Source: Gammaproteobacteria bacterium | Lineage (GTDB): Bacteria > Pseudomonadota > Gammaproteobacteria > CAJXQU01 | Length of the DNA: 64,000 nucleotides | Reading direction: 5' to 3' | NCBI GenBank assembly: GCA_965238175.1 | Contig: CBDEGZ010000003.1 | Location: 384,001-448,000 of the forward strand | In this document: positions 40,032 to 46,743 of the stretch, piece by piece | Layout of the letters: every line of letters begins with the position of its first letter | How positions within the stretch are numbered: the first letter of the stretch is position 1 | Made by a program: the position numbers and the translations under genes | The notes under the pieces: generated by a model | Told to the model about the DNA's origin: nothing | Database searches by the model: none | Seen by the model: only the letters and a program-made list of their open reading frames with translations

Positions 40032-41618
40032 TTATAAATCCTTAAATTTCAGATTATATTTATTTAAGTAAACTCTTATTCGCTGTGAATCATTATTAGT
40101 TTCCTTTTTTGAACTACTTCGATTAAAAAGTTGCCTACCTGCATCAGCCATACTTTTGCTTTCTTTGCAGAGACGAATAACATGTGTAAGTTGTGCCTGT
40201 TCAAACAAATCTAGATTTTCATAAGCTCCACTTGTGAGCGTATTTTTAAGCAGCTCATCATCACTATTGCTTTTAGAATCTTTGTAACCATTCCAATCCA
40301 TCTGTAATCGCTGTATTTCATGATCAACAATACTCTCCGTAATTCGGCCACCCGTCGCTAAGGTTGCCATTCGGGTGATACTCGAATTCAGATCACGAAA
40401 GTTTGCTTTCCATTCAGCGAAAGAACTTAACGAGAACGCAAGGTATTTTGATTTTGCCGAGCTGTTAAAACCAATTTTATGATTCATATCCTGTGCATAG
40501 CGTTGAAGTTCATATTCTATATTTGGTTCAATATCTTCATAACGTTCTTTGAGTGAAGGCAGCTGGTAGTTCCACAAGTTGATTCTGGCTAGTAGATCTT
40601 CTCTGAATTTACCTTCTTCAACGAGTTGATAGAGATTGCGATTTGTTCCTGCGATGAGCTGAAAATCGCTGCTGACTTTTTGATCGGAACCAAACGGAGT
40701 AAACACTTTTTCTTCAATCGCTCGTAGTAACATGGCTTGTTCGTCTAAACCGAGCTCACCGATTTCATCCAAAAAAAGTAACCCGTGATTTGCTTCTAAT
40801 AATAATCCATTTCGATTATTCACAGCTCCTGTATAGGCGCCCTTTATATGCCCAAACAGCGTAGACATGGCATTATCACCACGCAATGTTGCGCAATTAA
40901 CTTCGACTAATTGCCCTTTAAGCTGTGTGCGCTGCTGTTTTAATTCGTATATTTTTTTGGCTAAATGTGACTTGCCAACACCAGTTGGTCCCATCAATAA
41001 AATAGGCGCTTTTGATCGAATAGCAACTTGCTCAATTTCATCAATAAGTTGGTTATATCGTTTATTGCGGGTTTCGATTCCATCTTTAAGATAACTAATG
41101 TCTTGTTGGGCATCGCGGTTAAATCGAGAGGCAATTTGATCATAACGAGAAAGATCCAGATCAATAGTAAATAACTCACCATGCGCACCTTCTTTACTCG
41201 GTGCAGTCTGAATCAGTTTACCCGGGAAATAATTCGCTTCAGTCAGCAGATAAATACAGATCTGTGCGACGTGCGTTCCTGTCGTGATATGAAAATGGTA
41301 GTTGTTATTTTCAGGATCAAAATTGTAAGCATGTGAAAAGTCGTGCAGTTGACTATAGACCTGCTCAAAATCCCAGGGATCATCATAGTCTACAAGGTAA
41401 ATAGAAATCTCAATATCCAGGCAAAGAGTGCTGATGTCTTTTAAAGTGAGGTCTAATAATGCCTGATCTTGTTTGTGATAGATCAGGATCAATTCATCAA
41501 CTGGAAACTCATGGTGCATCAACAATGACATGGTTGGACGCCAGCGTAACCAGCGCTTACTTCCAAGGCCTACATTATCAAGACGAGAGCCTAAAATCCC
41601 AATAACTATATTATTCAT
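40032..41618 (-). CDS. rtcR: RNA-repair operon activator RtcR (CARF + sigma54 AAA+)
   Basis: RWLRWRPT, DPWDFEQVY, HITTGTHVAQIC, GPTGVGKS, VNCATLRGD, GAYTGA; divergent from rtcB. Confidence 0.96.
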   Translation of the reverse strand: MNNIVIGILGSRLDNVGLGSKRWLRWRPTMSLLMHHEFPVDELILIYHKQDQALLDLTLKDISTLCLDIEISIYLVDYDDPWDFEQVYSQLHDFSHAYNFDPENNNYHFHITTGTHVAQICIYLLTEANYFPGKLIQTAPSKEGAHGELFTIDLDLSRYDQIASRFNRDAQQDISYLKDGIETRNKRYNQLIDEIEQVAIRSKAPILLMGPTGVGKSHLAKKIYELKQQRTQLKGQLVEVNCATLRGDNAMSTLFGHIKGAYTGAVNNRNGLLLEANHGLLFLDEIGELGLDEQAMLLRAIEEKVFTPFGSDQKVSSDFQLIAGTNRNLYQLVEEGKFREDLLARINLWNYQLPSLKERYEDIEPNIEYELQRYAQDMNHKIGFNSSAKSKYLAFSLSSFAEWKANFRDLNSSITRMATLATGGRITESIVDHEIQRLQMDWNGYKDSKSNSDDELLKNTLTSGAYENLDLFEQAQLTHVIRLCKESKSMADAGRQLFNRSSSKKETNNDSQRIRVYLNKYNLKFKDL

Positions 41619-41757: not shown

Positions 41758-41773
41758 TGGCAGGCCCATTGCA
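41758..41773 (+). promoter_or_regulatory. Sigma54 (-24/-12) promoter of the rtcB operon
   Basis: TGGCAGGCCCATTGCA matches TGGCA-N6-TTGCA, ~67 nt upstream of rtcB. Confidence 0.88.
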
Positions 41774-41840: not shown

Positions 41841-43094
41841 ATGGACCAGCAAAACAACATTAAAAACTCAAGCAACTATGACGTGTTATACGCAAATATT
41901 TCGAGAGTACCGGTTAAGTCATGGACCAAAGGTGTGCCGTTTGATCAGAATTCAAAGGATCAATTATTGAGCCTTTCGCAAATGCCTTTTATCCATAAAT
42001 GGATTGCGGCAATGCCTGATGTTCATGTTGGGAAAGGGGCCACGATAGGAAGCGTCATCCCAACATTTGGTGCGGTTATTCCTGCTGCCGTCGGTGTGGA
42101 TTTAGGTTGCGGAATGATGGCAGCAAAAACGACTCTGACGGCCAATGACCTGCCTGACGATTTAGCTGATATGCGTAGCGCAATTGAAAGTTTGGTTCCA
42201 CATGGTCGCTCTGCTCGACGTCGTGGTGGTCGTGATAAAGGTAGCTGGGGAAATATACCAGATGATGTGGCTGAAGCATGGTCGCCACTAGCTGATGGAT
42301 TTGATCGCCTGGTTGAAAAGCATCCGTTTTTGAAGAATACCAATAACGTCGCGCATTTAGGAACATTGGGAACAGGTAATCACTTTGTAGAGATCTGCCT
42401 GGACGAAAATGAGGATGTCTGGGTGATGTTACATAGCGGATCTCGTGGTGTGGGTAATGCGATTGGAAGACATTTTATCGAAAAAGCACAACGAGATATG
42501 GAACGCTGGTTTATTCATTTGCCTGATCGAGATCTGGCTTATATACCAGAGGGCAGCGAGCAGTTTGGTCACTATATTTCTGCAGTGTCATGGGCACAAG
42601 ATTTTGCCCGCATTAATCGTGAAATAATGATGCAGCGAACATTGCAAGCCATGACTGATGTTTTACCAATAGCATTTACGGCTGATGTAGAAGCGGTGAA
42701 TTGTCACCATAACTACATCCGTAAAGAGAACCACTACGACGAAAACGTGTGGGTCACTCGAAAAGGTGCGGTGAGTGCTCGCAAAGGCGAAATGGGCATT
42801 ATCCCAGGAAGTATGGGTGCGAAATCATTCATCGTTCGAGGGCTTGGAAATGAAGAAAGCTTTTGTAGTTGTAGCCATGGAGCAGGACGTGTGATGTCAC
42901 GTACTCAAGCAAAAAAAGTAGTTTCATTAGCAGAACACGTTCAAGCCACGAAAGGTGTGGAATGCCGTAAAGATGCGAGTGTAATTGATGAAACTCCAGC
43001 AGCGTATAAACCGATTGAACAAGTCATGGAAGCACAAAATGATCTTGTGGAAATAGTACATACCTTAAAGCAGGTCGTGTGCGTAAAAGGATAA
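41841..43094 (+). CDS. rtcB: RNA 3'-phosphate/5'-OH ligase RtcB
   Basis: MPDVHVGKGATIG, VGVDLGCGM, LGTLGTGNHFVE, HSGSRG, HHNY, PGSMG, SHGAGR, DETPAAYK. Confidence 0.97.
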   Translation: MDQQNNIKNSSNYDVLYANISRVPVKSWTKGVPFDQNSKDQLLSLSQMPFIHKWIAAMPDVHVGKGATIGSVIPTFGAVIPAAVGVDLGCGMMAAKTTLTANDLPDDLADMRSAIESLVPHGRSARRRGGRDKGSWGNIPDDVAEAWSPLADGFDRLVEKHPFLKNTNNVAHLGTLGTGNHFVEICLDENEDVWVMLHSGSRGVGNAIGRHFIEKAQRDMERWFIHLPDRDLAYIPEGSEQFGHYISAVSWAQDFARINREIMMQRTLQAMTDVLPIAFTADVEAVNCHHNYIRKENHYDENVWVTRKGAVSARKGEMGIIPGSMGAKSFIVRGLGNEESFCSCSHGAGRVMSRTQAKKVVSLAEHVQATKGVECRKDASVIDETPAAYKPIEQVMEAQNDLVEIVHTLKQVVCVKG

Positions 43095-43203
43095 GCGCGG
43101 AAAGCAGATGCTGGAATGGGCCAGCACCTTTTAGGAAAGAAGAATTCTGTATATTTCTGTTAAAAAAGTAGTTAGGAAAATACAACAAAGAATCTCAATC
43201 TTT

Positions 43204-43271
43204 ACAAACTTGCGGAGCTGGTTTTAACCAGCCTGACACCAGGTTCTTTGAGCCAATGTGTATCGGTTTGT
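43204..43271 (+). ncRNA. Putative small structured RNA element (three-way junction)
   Basis: ACAAACT/GGTTTGT closing stem; inner hairpins GCTGGT-TTTA-ACCAGC and GGTTC-TTT-GAGCC. Confidence 0.4.
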
Positions 43272-43286
43272 GCGGGTTAGATAACT

Positions 43287-43352
43287 ATCGTTATAGCTAA
43301 ATGGTAAAGCGCTGGAAACAGTCATGTGATGGTTCGACTCCATCTAACGATG
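43287..43352 (+). ncRNA. tRNA-like RNA lacking an anticodon loop
   Basis: Acceptor ATCGTTA/TAACGAT; D-arm GCT-AAATGGTAA-AGC; anticodon arm replaced by GCTG-GAAA-CAGT; T-arm GATGG-TTCGACT-CCATC; no encoded CCA. Confidence 0.82.
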
Positions 43353-43354
43353 CT

Positions 43355-43428
43355 ATCACTATAGCTCATATGGTTAGAGCAGTTGACTCAAAATCAATTT
43401 GTAGCCGGTTCGAATCCGGCTAGTGAAC
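43355..43428 (+). tRNA. Atypical tRNA / tRNA-like RNA, anticodon CAA, short variable loop
   Basis: Acceptor (A)TCACTA/TAGTGA(A) with A1:A72 mismatch; D-arm GCTC-ATATGGTTA-GAGC; anticodon arm GTTGA-CTCAAAA-TCAAT; T-arm GCCGG-TTCGAAT-CCGGC. Confidence 0.8.
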
Positions 43429-43484
43429 CGCCGAAAGGCACCAACTTACACATTAAAGTGTATTGAAATAATGTCTGAAAGGAC

Positions 43485-43757
43485 AATGTAAAACGCTCCA
43501 GACAGCAGATCATTTATGAAAAATATTCTAGTTGTTGAAGATTTCACCTTCTTCGGAAGAGGCAGTTCAGAGATAACAAGAGTGGCCTGAATAGGTCTGA
43601 ATAGACTTGAAGCGTCAACATGCAAACGACCTTTGTGGTGGGTTTGTAACTTGCGAATTTATGAGACTTTTCAATAGAGATAATTCTGTTGTCATCGCCA
43701 TAATCATCCCAGGATACATAAACCAACGAGCTAGTTTGTATGTGGAGCGTTTACATT
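43485..43757 (+). ncRNA. Putative ~270-nt multi-stem structured RNA
   Basis: Nested long-range helices 43485-43500/43743-43757, 43501-43509/43685-43693, 43533-43546/43662-43676, plus inner hairpins including a cUUCGg loop. Confidence 0.65.
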
Positions 43758-43774
43758 TTTTAAGGAGAATTAGT

Positions 43775-44938
43775 ATGTTTTTTATGAAAAAAATTATCGT
43801 TCCTGAAACGCATCATGCTTTGTTATTCAAAGACGAGCCGTTCAGTAATGTACTTATGCCAGGTGTTTATAATTTGCTCGACTTAAGAAATCGAATTAGA
43901 TTTTCTCTAGTTGATATTTCTAACACCTTAGAAAATGGTGTAAATGATCAGGCGATGAAAGTTTTAAAACTACATCCTGAAAAAATGAACGCACACGTAC
44001 AAATCTGGGAAACCGGAGAACATGAAGTAGGACTTGCTTATCAAGACAATATCTTGAAAGAAATTAAAGCACCTGCCGAACGTGGCGCTTATTGGACAGG
44101 TTTTGGTGAAGTAACGATCAAAAAAATCGATATTTCTGAAATCTTCAAGCTGGATAAAACACTCGCAAGAATGGTGTTAGCCGCTAAAGACTCCTTGCTT
44201 AAAAACTCAGCAATTAGCGCAGTGACTACGGCTACTATTCCAGAACGTCATTTTGGTTTTTTGGAAGTTGGTGGTGAACAGCACTCTAAGTTAGACGCAG
44301 GTATCCATGTTTGGTGGAAATTCAATCGTAACCTAAAGGTTAAACAGATTGATTTAAGGCTACAAAACATGGAAGTTAATGGACAAGAAATTTTGACCAA
44401 AGACCGTGTTGGTTTGCGTGTTAATTTATCTGCTACCTGGCAAGTCAGTGATGCAAAACGTGTGTCTGCAGAATTAGCAGATCATACTGATTATTTGTAC
44501 CGTGAATTGCAGTTAGCATTGCGTACGATTGTTTCCACTCAAACATTGGATGAGTTGCTTGTCGATAAAAATAAACTGAATCAAAAAATTCAAGAGATTG
44601 TTGTCAGTAAAGCCTCTCAATACGGCATTGAGTTAAAAACGGTTGGTGCAAGAGATATTGTTTTACCCGGTGAAATGAAAACGATTTTGAGCCAAGTTGT
44701 TGAAGCCGAAAAAATGGCTGAAGCAAATTTGATCAAACGTAGAGAAGAAACCCAGGCGACAAGATCATTGCACAACACTGCAAAAGTGATGGAAGGAAAC
44801 CCAACCCTTTTACGTTTGAAAGAACTGGAAGTGCTAGAAAAAATCACATCACAGATCAGTACGCTAAATGTTTATGGTGGCTTGGATGGCGTTATGAACG
44901 ACATGGTTCGTATCCCATCGACAGCTGCTAAGACATGA
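43775..44938 (+). CDS. SPFH/band-7 'slipin' family protein
   Basis: AAGGAG RBS at 43762-43767 then ATG 43775; DLRLQNMEVNGQEILTKDRV, LYRELQLALR, DIVLPGEMK, RREETQATRSLHNTA, NPTLLRLKELE. Confidence 0.9.
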   Translation: MFFMKKIIVPETHHALLFKDEPFSNVLMPGVYNLLDLRNRIRFSLVDISNTLENGVNDQAMKVLKLHPEKMNAHVQIWETGEHEVGLAYQDNILKEIKAPAERGAYWTGFGEVTIKKIDISEIFKLDKTLARMVLAAKDSLLKNSAISAVTTATIPERHFGFLEVGGEQHSKLDAGIHVWWKFNRNLKVKQIDLRLQNMEVNGQEILTKDRVGLRVNLSATWQVSDAKRVSAELADHTDYLYRELQLALRTIVSTQTLDELLVDKNKLNQKIQEIVVSKASQYGIELKTVGARDIVLPGEMKTILSQVVEAEKMAEANLIKRREETQATRSLHNTAKVMEGNPTLLRLKELEVLEKITSQISTLNVYGGLDGVMNDMVRIPSTAAKT

Positions 44939-44983: not shown

Positions 44984-45034
44984 CAACTCTCTTTTAATCA
45001 AATCTATAGAAACCAAAATTAAGAAGGTTTGAGT

Positions 45035-45460
45035 ATGAAAAGTAGCAAACAAAGAAGATTGGAAATTAAAGAAAAAAGGAGAAAAAAAGCTGCAAAGTTA
45101 AAAATTAGTACTTTTGAGGTTTGTGATCCTCTTCCTAAAGGGGCTGTCTTATCAAGCTCAATGGAACTCCGCCATAATAATATTTATTGTGTTTTACCAC
45201 TTTTTTATGTCGATAAAGCTTATAGTTGTCAGGACTGTGGTTCAAAAGAATTATGGACAGCTAAACAACAAAAATGGTGGTACGAAATTGCAAAAGGTAA
45301 TATTTATTCTAGCGCAGTAAAATGTTTGAAATGCCGAAAAAAAATAAAACCAGAAAAAGAGACTCAAAAAAACACATGGAAAAAATGGCACTTAAAGAAC
45401 CCCATCCAAATGAGGCTTTTTTTAAGAAACGTTAATTATTTCAGGAAAAAATCAAGATAA
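45035..45460 (+). CDS. Zinc-ribbon domain protein (possible 3' frameshift)
   Basis: CQDCG...WTAKQQKWWYE...CLKC; basic N-terminus. Confidence 0.75.
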   Translation: MKSSKQRRLEIKEKRRKKAAKLKISTFEVCDPLPKGAVLSSSMELRHNNIYCVLPLFYVDKAYSCQDCGSKELWTAKQQKWWYEIAKGNIYSSAVKCLKCRKKIKPEKETQKNTWKKWHLKNPIQMRLFLRNVNYFRKKSR

Positions 45461-45517: not shown

Positions 45518-46743
45518 TGTAGAAGTTTAGACCCAATCTGACACATCACTAAATCAAGCGGAGCGTAGCGACGCTTGATTTAGTGAGAGTTACCCGCTTT
45601 GATGTAACTGCAACGTAAACATCAAAACACAAAGAGGTAACTCTCATGATTCATACTAATGACAAAGTTATAAAACATAAAGTTGGTCTACTCAATCTCG
45701 CTGAAGAACTCGGCAATGTCTCAAAAGCCTGCAAGATGATGGGTTTGTCCAGAGATACATTTTATCGCTACAAAGAAGCGGCTGATGAAGGCGGTGTAGA
45801 AGCCTTGTTTGATCGTAATCGGCGTACCCCAAATCTTAAAAACAGAATCGACCCGGCTATTGAAACCGTTGTGCTCGAGTATGCACTGGAAGAGCCCGCA
45901 CATGGTCAAACGCGCACCAGTAACGAGCTGCGCAAACGGGGAACATTTGTCTCACCCAGTGGCGTTCGTTGTATCTGGCTTCGTCATGGTCTTGCTTGCT
46001 TTAAAGATCGCCTGAAGGCATTGTCTGATAAGGTAGCTGGTGAAGGCTTGATCCTCACTGAGTCTCAAGTCGCGGCGATGGAACGCAAAAAAGACGACGA
46101 TGAGGCTTGTGGCGAGATAGAAACGGCACACCCTGGTTATCTTGGCTCGCAAGATACTTACTATGTCGGTACTTTCAAAGGCATTGGTCGGGTTTATCAA
46201 CAAACGTTTGTTGATACTTACAGCAAGGTCGCTCACGCGAAACTGTACCCGACTAAAACACCGATTACGGCAGCTGACATGCTCAATGACCGCGTCCTCC
46301 CATTCTACGAACAACAACGTTTGCCTATGTTGCGCATTTTGACAGATAGAGGGACGGAGTATTGTGGGCGAGCTGACCAGCATGATTATCAGCTTTATAT
46401 GGCGTTGAACAATATCGAACACACCAAAACCAAGGTCAAATCACCTCAGACGAATGGTATTTGTGAGCGATTCCATAAGACGATCCTCAATGAGTTTTAT
46501 CAAGTCGCTTTGCGTAAGAAAATTTACCAATCGATTGATGAACTGCAACTCGACCTTGACGAATGGTTGCTCAAATACAATACTCAACGAACTCACCAAG
46601 GCAAAATGTGCTGCGGGAGGACGCCGATGGAAACACTCATCGACGGACAAGCTATCTGGAAGGAAAAGTTTGTGAATTAAACTTAACCTGACAGTCGGTT
46701 ACTGATAATTGGGTAACTGTCAGATCAAATCTGAATTTCTACA
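45518..46743 (+). mobile_element. IS481-family insertion sequence with 7-bp target duplication AATTAGT
   Basis: TGT...ACA ends; imperfect 26-bp IRs TGTAGAAGTTTAGACCCAATCTGACA / TGTCAGATCAAATCTGAATTTCTACA; AATTAGT at 45511-45517 and 46744-46750. Confidence 0.93.
45646..46680 (+). CDS. IS481-family DDE transposase
   Basis: HTH (LAEELGNVSKACK..G.SRDTFYRY), SQDT, LTDRGTEY, PQTNGICERF. Confidence 0.95.
   Translation: MIHTNDKVIKHKVGLLNLAEELGNVSKACKMMGLSRDTFYRYKEAADEGGVEALFDRNRRTPNLKNRIDPAIETVVLEYALEEPAHGQTRTSNELRKRGTFVSPSGVRCIWLRHGLACFKDRLKALSDKVAGEGLILTESQVAAMERKKDDDEACGEIETAHPGYLGSQDTYYVGTFKGIGRVYQQTFVDTYSKVAHAKLYPTKTPITAADMLNDRVLPFYEQQRLPMLRILTDRGTEYCGRADQHDYQLYMALNNIEHTKTKVKSPQTNGICERFHKTILNEFYQVALRKKIYQSIDELQLDLDEWLLKYNTQRTHQGKMCCGRTPMETLIDGQAIWKEKFVN

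Follow-up and report, generated by a model that had tools for sequence, protein, structure and literature searches.

Stress responses that depend on RtcB/RtcR operons are widespread, but little is understood of the accessory parts of these operons; in rsr-yrlBA-rtcBA operons the bacterial Y RNA serves Ro60/Rsr. Excerpts from Wang et al. (2018, bioRxiv 10.1101/312249) state that Burroughs and Aravind predicted a tRNA next to Band-7 and RtcB which was never validated, and that the Band-7 branch of RtcB operons, predicted in 2016, was never experimentally tested. An excerpt of PMC10272220 reports that a slipin gene and rtcB were de-repressed together in an Anabaena trcR mutant. For Pseudomonas aeruginosa, the SPFH gene PaFlo8/PA4582 is reported to lie within the rtc locus (PMC13086221, PMC8619066). 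No paper on the 3' structured domain described here came up in our literature search, which covered Burroughs and Aravind (2016) at second hand.

The locus studied here lies in a 64-kb window (the whole stretch of 64,000 nucleotides that was analysed) and shows the features of the b7a-tRNA cassette: tRNA-like elements adjoin a Band_7 slipin gene, and rtcB and rtcR are linked to them. In this RtcR/sigma-54 RNA-repair operon, rtcR and the divergent rtcB are followed by a tandem pair of tRNA-like elements, then by three small hairpins, the structured RNA, slipin, a zinc-finger ORF and an IS-type integrase, with the following features (positions of the window):

40032-41618, - strand: rtcR, whose product is a sigma-54 activator that carries RtcR/CARF at its N terminus (Pfam Sigma54_activat and, at 234 bits, RtcR; NCBIfam RNA_repair_RtcR equivalog 752.8 bits, cut-off 650)
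41758-41772, + strand: sigma-54-type promoter-like site TGGCAGGCCCATTGC, about 70 nt 5' of the rtcB ATG (one mismatch to TGGCAC-N5-TTGC)
41841-43094, + strand: rtcB RNA ligase (Pfam RtcB 427 bits)
43287-43352, + strand: tRNA-like element 1, 66 nt (Rfam tRNA 48.4 bits; no ARAGORN call)
43355-43429, + strand: tRNA-like element 2, 'anticodon' CAA (Rfam tRNA 57.9 bits; ARAGORN tRNA-Leu CAA)
43430-43485, + strand: three small hairpins at 43430-39 (GNRA loop), 43442-65 and 43472-85 (GAAA loop), present in the MFE fold
43485-43500, + strand: 5' strand of the closing helix P1 (duplex with 43743-57; the family P1 covaries)
43501-43610, + strand: variable 5' domain, in which AGGTCT-GAAT-AGACTT is one of the local hairpins (structure from the single-sequence MFE alone)
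43611-43755, + strand: conserved 3' domain, comprising the junction, a long irregular hairpin and the 3' strand of P1 (covariance model R1, 52.7 bits, E 2.2e-12)
43757-43767, + strand: U-tract followed by the AAGGAG ribosome-binding site (RBS, 43762-67), read from the sequence
43775-44938, + strand: slipin (SPFH/Band-7), 387 aa, no predicted membrane helix (Pfam Band_7 95 bits)
45029-45460, + strand: small treble-clef zinc-finger ORF (Pfam zf_Tbcl 49 bits)
45646-46680, strand n/a: IS-type transposase with HTH and rve integrase core, 700 nt 3' of the cassette (Pfam)

The site TGGCAGGCCCATTGC was read as sigma-54-type against the consensus TGGCAC-N5-TTGC; this pattern was not enriched across the window (40 matches vs. 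50 expected), and the position of the site alone supports it. A simple scan of the interval between rtcB and slipin detected no terminator-like site and no convincing promoter, and co-transcription of the two genes seems plausible. Among sequencing runs looked up for 43200-44200, the sequence was listed for two DNA-type runs, both from one study, and for no RNA run. The window's own genome (97.7% complete) gave no TROVE/Ro60 match (PF05731; the controls responded) and no match to the RtcA cyclase, although rtcR and rtcB are present. With PADLOC, the RtcR models alone matched, and slipin, rtcB and the zinc-finger ORF had no defence-system match. Homologues of the zinc-finger ORF follow slipin in two related loci (L034 and L037), and in three others (L123, L125 and L126) they separate slipin from rtcB; the ORF may be a further conserved partner.

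The earlier note on this DNA had described 43485-43761 as a highly structured RNA of no family that it recognised. A search of Rfam 15 with the whole window at gathering score returned two tRNA-type matches only (43287-43352 and 43355-43428) and none over 43485-43761, in agreement with that claim. Under permissive settings (E up to 10) the only match over the element was sR4 at 12.3 bits, along with RUF1 at 17.4 bits, mostly in coding sequence, and 18 related loci gave tRNA matches alone. Judged from the sequence, the 3' structured domain is a family absent from Rfam 15.

The + strand of 43485-43761 reached an MFE of -78.5 kcal/mol, compared to -59.9 ± 4.56 kcal/mol in 200 dinucleotide shuffles (z -4.08), and none of the 200 folded as well, whereas 8 of 200 shuffles were equally good for the - strand (z -1.94). 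An RNA-level structure on the + strand, as the earlier note had proposed, is thus borne out, and its folding energy is better than that of every dinucleotide shuffle. The note had also taken the G-U pairs of its helices, together with a UUCG loop, as a sign of the + strand; many G-U pairs occur within the conserved helices of the family, and because they are frequent there the RNA is assigned to this strand.

The long-range helices of the proposed fold fared differently from one another. The outermost, which pairs the ends of the element (43485-43500 with 43743-57), was present in the MFE fold with a duplex energy of -18.4 kcal/mol and corresponds to the covarying closing helix P1 of the family; the T-tract and the AAGGAG RBS adjoin it as described. 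By contrast, the second helix (43501-09 with 43685-93) and the third (43533-46 with 43662-76), both said to be nested inside P1, were not in the MFE fold and would cross helices of the 3' domain that are supported by covariation. Pairing of the 5' domain with the apical region stood at shuffle level (z -1.31 in the window, median z -0.22 in the family, z below -2 in 1 of 71 sequences), and the second and third helices were also dismissed as a pseudoknot or switch, their duplex energies being at chance. Among the smaller hairpins named in the note, AGGTCT-GAAT-AGACTT was recovered in the MFE fold. The base of the 3' domain was confirmed, as was the closing helix. The segment TGCAAAC does pair, but with the distal GTTTGTA (43735-41) and not with the nearby copy, and the cUUCGg hairpin sits in the variable 5' domain, where the MFE fold has a competing hairpin. 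The element does not stand alone, as the note had it: the conserved unit reaches 5' of 43485 and takes in the three hairpins (43430-85) and the two tRNA-like units (43287-43429). These tRNA-like units and the setting among RtcR/RtcB repair genes had escaped the note.

The slipin protein has thousands of homologues. Using an alignment of 25 of them (A1), 80 genomic loci were retrieved, which carry the database labels Thiotrichales, Methylococcales, Cellvibrionaceae, Gallionella, Methylotenera and others. Cultivable carriers include Leucothrix arctica IMCC9719, Thiothrix caldifontis DSM 21228, Cellvibrio fibrivorans, Simiduia litorea and Methylomicrobium lacus. The spacer between the second tRNA-like element and the slipin start measured about 235-290 nt in most loci, and single-sequence folds of the spacers showed one common architecture. 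An alignment of 39 spacers made with MAFFT and not fitted to structure (A2), with the structure taken from RNAalifold, gave a consensus of hairpin H1, hairpin H2, the closing helix P1, a variable arm and a long conserved 3' arm. In this alignment 84.8% of the cells were paired, compared to 34-43% when the partners were slid by 1-3 columns, and the covariation score was 0.460 (0.07-0.12 slid). Two-sided changes were found in 45 of 57 pairs and none of 500 shuffles attained the observed values; the earlier note had named a lack of covariation in homologues as grounds for giving up its proposal. Run more cautiously, RNAalifold predicted 21 pairs, and compensatory changes were seen in 18 of these. 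P1 comprises 10 pairs in the family, with two-sided changes in 7; its core CCUCC/GGAGG is conserved in sequence and resembles an SD/anti-SD pair. H1 and H2, the equivalents of the small hairpins of the window, were 100% paired in the 39 spacers with some two-sided changes, and the loop of H2 was GNRA in 33 of the 39. Members of the family differ in the length of the variable 5' domain (32 to about 110 nt), which aligned poorly. Two further candidates were set aside. A conserved GGGU internal loop pairing with ACCC after the second tRNA-like element, as in a T-box, showed no covariation when A2 was inspected by eye, UACCC being kept where GGGU is lost; and the CCUCC of P1, considered as mimicry of the 16S anti-SD, has only 4-5 nt in common with it, at positions that covary with their partner.

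A covariance model of the 3' domain alone (R1, built from alignment A3 with 122 positions and 32 pairs, the window being outside the seed) found a single match in the 64-kb window, full-length over model positions 1-122, at 43611-43755 on the + strand. The model matched 71 of 81 sources, including 32 of the 42 that were outside the seed. In the R1-fitted alignment of the 71 sequences 87.5% of the cells were paired (33-37% slid) and 30 of the 32 pairs showed two-sided changes; in the window itself 27 of the 32 model pairs are canonical, and its unconstrained MFE (-92.3 kcal/mol) was close to the energy of the family-constrained fold (-90.9 kcal/mol). Nor is the RNA coding: in 14 of the 71 R1 matches all six frames are closed. 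In distant loci a sequence-only nhmmer profile gave weak scores (L114 21 bits; L061, L120 and L115 11-13 bits). The spacers of six distant Pseudomonadales-type loci (L116-L120 and L124) contain a perfect T-arm-like hairpin, GGGGUUCGAnUCCCC, together with GNRA hairpins and a closing helix GAGGYCCAUG.../...GGUGGGCCUC; these spacers seem to hold a diverged version of the RNA that includes part of a third tRNA-like module. The closest relatives of the window (L032, L033 and L037) have an extra 90 nt or so with two more hairpins between the RNA and the RBS, which are absent from the window.

These data bear on a further alternative, in which the fold is due to chance, or the element is a repeat or a degenerate mobile element, without a function of its own. 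The IS-type integrase gene 700 nt 3' of the cassette and the failure to find the cassette in any of the five congeners searched speak for it, and the same two observations suggest that the cassette was acquired laterally. A DNA search of 61 relatives (including 6 congeners) gave matches of true tRNAs to the tRNA-like part only and did not find the element, and five congeners had no full-length slipin of the window's type. One of the 61, G045, is an unpublished genome that none of our conclusions depends on. Against this alternative, BLAST and the covariance model found one copy in the window's own genome, which argues against the MITE considered in the earlier note, and R1 found one copy each in three other genomes (G157, G158 and G159); covariation was strong, and the element is conserved across Gamma- and Betaproteobacteria (database labels). 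Covariation and the R1 matches in 71 of the 81 sources refute it, and we give it practically no credence.

At least one ARAGORN tRNA-like element was present on the same strand within 520 nt upstream of slipin in 76 of the 80 loci. A tandem pair occurred in 45 of the 80, with a gap of -2 to +1 nt, and the pair in the window is 2 nt apart. The 121 tRNA-like calls comprised 39 distinct 'anticodons', with A34 in 40 calls, malformed anticodon loops in 24 and 'tta' in 2; the tRNA-like elements are, from their sequences, non-decoding mimics. Automatic annotation would list 43355-43429 as tRNA-Leu(CAA). In the main clade H1, the first hairpin after the second tRNA-like element, has a 7-nt loop of the form C-U-NNN-A-N (C in 36 of 39 sequences, U in 39 and A in 35; A2 columns 5-19, e.g. 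L050:3265-3283), which makes it a free-standing look-alike of an anticodon arm with a variable 'anticodon'.

Such loops are what a decoy, sensor or substrate for RNA-cutting toxins and RtcB might carry: the tRNA-like elements and the anticodon-like hairpin would bait anticodon nucleases, and P1 would hold the ends together for resealing or circularising by RtcB. The hypervariability of the tRNA-like 'anticodon' loops, the anticodon-loop pattern of H1 in the 39 sequences and the joining of the domain ends by P1 agree with this proposal, but it accounts for the tRNA-like parts and not for the conserved 3' domain, and the anticodon-like H1 was not seen in the window's own clade. The distribution of rtcB also speaks against it. 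The rtcB gene was upstream in 49 of the 80 loci. Upstream sequence of at least 3 kb was available for 63 loci; 17 of these had no rtcB there and kept the tRNA-like elements, the RNA and slipin, and because of these loci we conclude that the RNA tracks slipin and not rtcB. We therefore consider the decoy unlikely. Among loci without upstream rtcB, RNA-repair genes lie directly 3' of slipin in four: KptA/Tpt1 (RNA 2'-phosphotransferase) in L046, L059 and L063, and Hen1 (methyltransferase) in L077. In L123, L125 and L126 the order is rtcR, a divergent tRNA pair, a spacer of 276-279 nt, slipin, the zinc-finger ORF and rtcB.

The link with slipin was also seen in searches that started from the RNA. 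When 151 genomes of the class were sampled, R1 had matches in two, that of the window and G106; slipin was present in each, and G106 also had the tRNA pair. A motif-pattern scan of metagenomes gave 15 stretches, 10 of which were R1 members (66-111 bits) with slipin directly 3' in all 10; the other 5 scored 13 bits or less and were chance matches. Among 301 sampled genomes of the order that holds L048, 19 had a slipin homologue, and a tRNA-like element lay 216-407 nt upstream on the same strand in all 14 measured spacers; two closer homologues likewise had a tRNA-like element upstream on the same strand. Three loci of this sample have the gene order given above for L123, L125 and L126. R1 scored the distant loci of this order weakly. 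The RNA is thus shown to be a conserved, covarying, folded RNA in a fixed linkage of tRNA-like elements, RNA and slipin.

All R1 matches lie directly 5' of slipin on its strand (71 sources), at a median of 23 nt from the match end to the start codon and at 18-38 nt in 63 of the 71. This constant position and spacing are the best arguments for a cis-acting 5' leader of the slipin mRNA, which would set slipin translation or read-through at P1 and the U-tract and would perhaps bind a damaged-RNA fragment, a tRNA-like module or slipin. A leader would also agree with the U-rich sequence after P1 (on average 5.3 T among the 12 nt that follow, and CAUUUUU directly after P1 in the window's clade), with the pairing of the SD-like GGAGG of the P1 core to CCUCC near the true RBS, and with the lack of a detectable separate promoter or terminator in the simple scan. 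Several observations fit it poorly, however: the RBS and start codon are outside every conserved pair, 87-184 nt separate the RNA from the start codon in 7 of the 71 loci, and the sole alternative pairing tried, that of the 5' domain with the apical region, was at chance level. The size, the GNRA hairpins and the tRNA-like modules suit RNPs and ornate RNAs better than known riboswitches, and no ligand class is suggested. We regard the cis leader as possible though not probable, and as a serious rival to a ribonucleoprotein. The earlier note had offered a trans-acting ncRNA or a cis-regulatory leader of slipin, and both options stay in play here.

SPFH proteins are usually seen as membrane scaffolds, and the slipin of the window has no membrane helix and no hydrophobic segment (maximum KD(19) 0.85). 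In its AlphaFold model (pLDDT 76) the predicted fold gave Z 14-17 with stomatin, prohibitin, HflK/C, flotillin and erlin, a set that includes cage-forming SPFH proteins whose cages are closed. The same predicted model matched the shoulder of MVP at Z 10.3-11.8, with about 183 residues aligned (rmsd 3.8-3.9). The N-terminal 135 residues were also folded alone (pLDDT 84.7); with this domain Foldseek found no match at E <= 1e-3, and no clear RNA-binding fold was seen among the best VIA-align matches (Z 4.9-6.3, residues 1-49 only), the best of which (Z 6.3, residues 2-49) is the first beta subdomain of SPFH proteins. A likeness of this domain to MVP repeats was considered and not established, as it gave weak matches only.

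The reading that we favour, to which we would give an even chance by analogy with known systems, is that the RNA is the large domain of a Band-7-associated tRNA-like RNA and the partner of a slipin assembly. The composite RNA would measure about 470 nt (43287-43759) and would start with two tRNA-like modules in tandem, continue with two or three short hairpins, most of them GNRA-capped, and end in the three-way-junction domain, the latter formed by the closing helix P1, the variable 5' arm and the conserved 3' arm. It would be transcribed with rtcB from the RtcR/sigma-54 promoter once RNA damage is sensed, and cleavage of the RNase P/Z type at the tRNA-like modules may release it. A discrete released RNA is an assumption, because neither a terminator-like site nor a convincing promoter was found between rtcB and slipin. 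The soluble SPFH/slipin protein, whose gene lies just 3', would then have this RNA as its cognate partner, in an RNP that would assist RNA repair, in the way that Y RNA serves Ro60/Rsr. Three points count against an RNP: the RNA is always directly 5' of slipin, as a 5' UTR would be; the SD/anti-SD-like core of P1 hints at a role in translation; and the modelled N-terminal domain of slipin presents no clear RNA-binding fold. A bolder form, which we put forward as a conjecture and think rather improbable, makes the RNA the core of a bacterial vault-like repair particle, in which a slipin cage on or around the 470-nt RNA would catch broken tRNA or rRNA and pass it to RtcB or other repair enzymes.

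The tRNA look-alikes beside Band-7 genes would be just the front end of a larger, strongly covarying RNA, and the Band-7 branch gains a concrete, clonable RNA whose helices are defined for mutation. Under the RNA partnership of slipin that we favour, no prokaryotic SPFH protein would have been linked to an RNA before. If the vault-like particle proved true, it would add a third kind to the RNA-repair RNPs, alongside Ro60-Y RNA, and the RNA would be the first known RNA partner of a prokaryotic SPFH protein. Because the family is absent from Rfam, genome annotation overlooks the RNA and takes the tRNA-like parts for tRNA genes whose anticodons are odd.

Compared to known systems, the RNA of the window has several features in common with YrlA and YrlB: they are non-coding, lie in an RtcR-controlled rtcB operon, combine tRNA mimicry with a helix of distant ends and adjoin the gene of a ring- or cage-forming protein. 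The window differs from YrlA/YrlB in having an SPFH partner, tRNA-like elements with complete cloverleaves and an RNA several times larger, and no TROVE gene was found in the genome. The match of the YrlA model (RF02553), 22.6 bits where 69 is the gathering score, spans 43301-43411 in the tRNA-like elements and does not cover the element. The Y-RNA-like architecture suggested in the earlier note therefore holds for the paired ends and not for kinship with Y RNA. With the vault RNP the likeness is one of analogy only: slipin has the SPFH 'shoulder' and long-helix fold of MVP, is soluble and has a gene tied to a small structured RNA, whereas there is no RNA homology and a cage at this locus is a conjecture from the fold. 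ROOL, GOLLD and raiA are, like the covariation-rich RNA of the window, sizeable RNAs of unknown function that adjoin tRNA-type genes; the RNA of the window has no Rfam match to them, is smaller and is strictly tied to one protein gene. The genomic setting is the same as in the b7a-tRNA system, which Wang et al. (2018) attribute to Burroughs and Aravind (2016) and in which a tRNA look-alike lies by a Band-7/SPFH gene and RtcB under RtcR. Set against that system, the element of the window forms a three-way-junction domain of its own, about 200-270 nt long and located 3' of the tandem tRNA-like pair.
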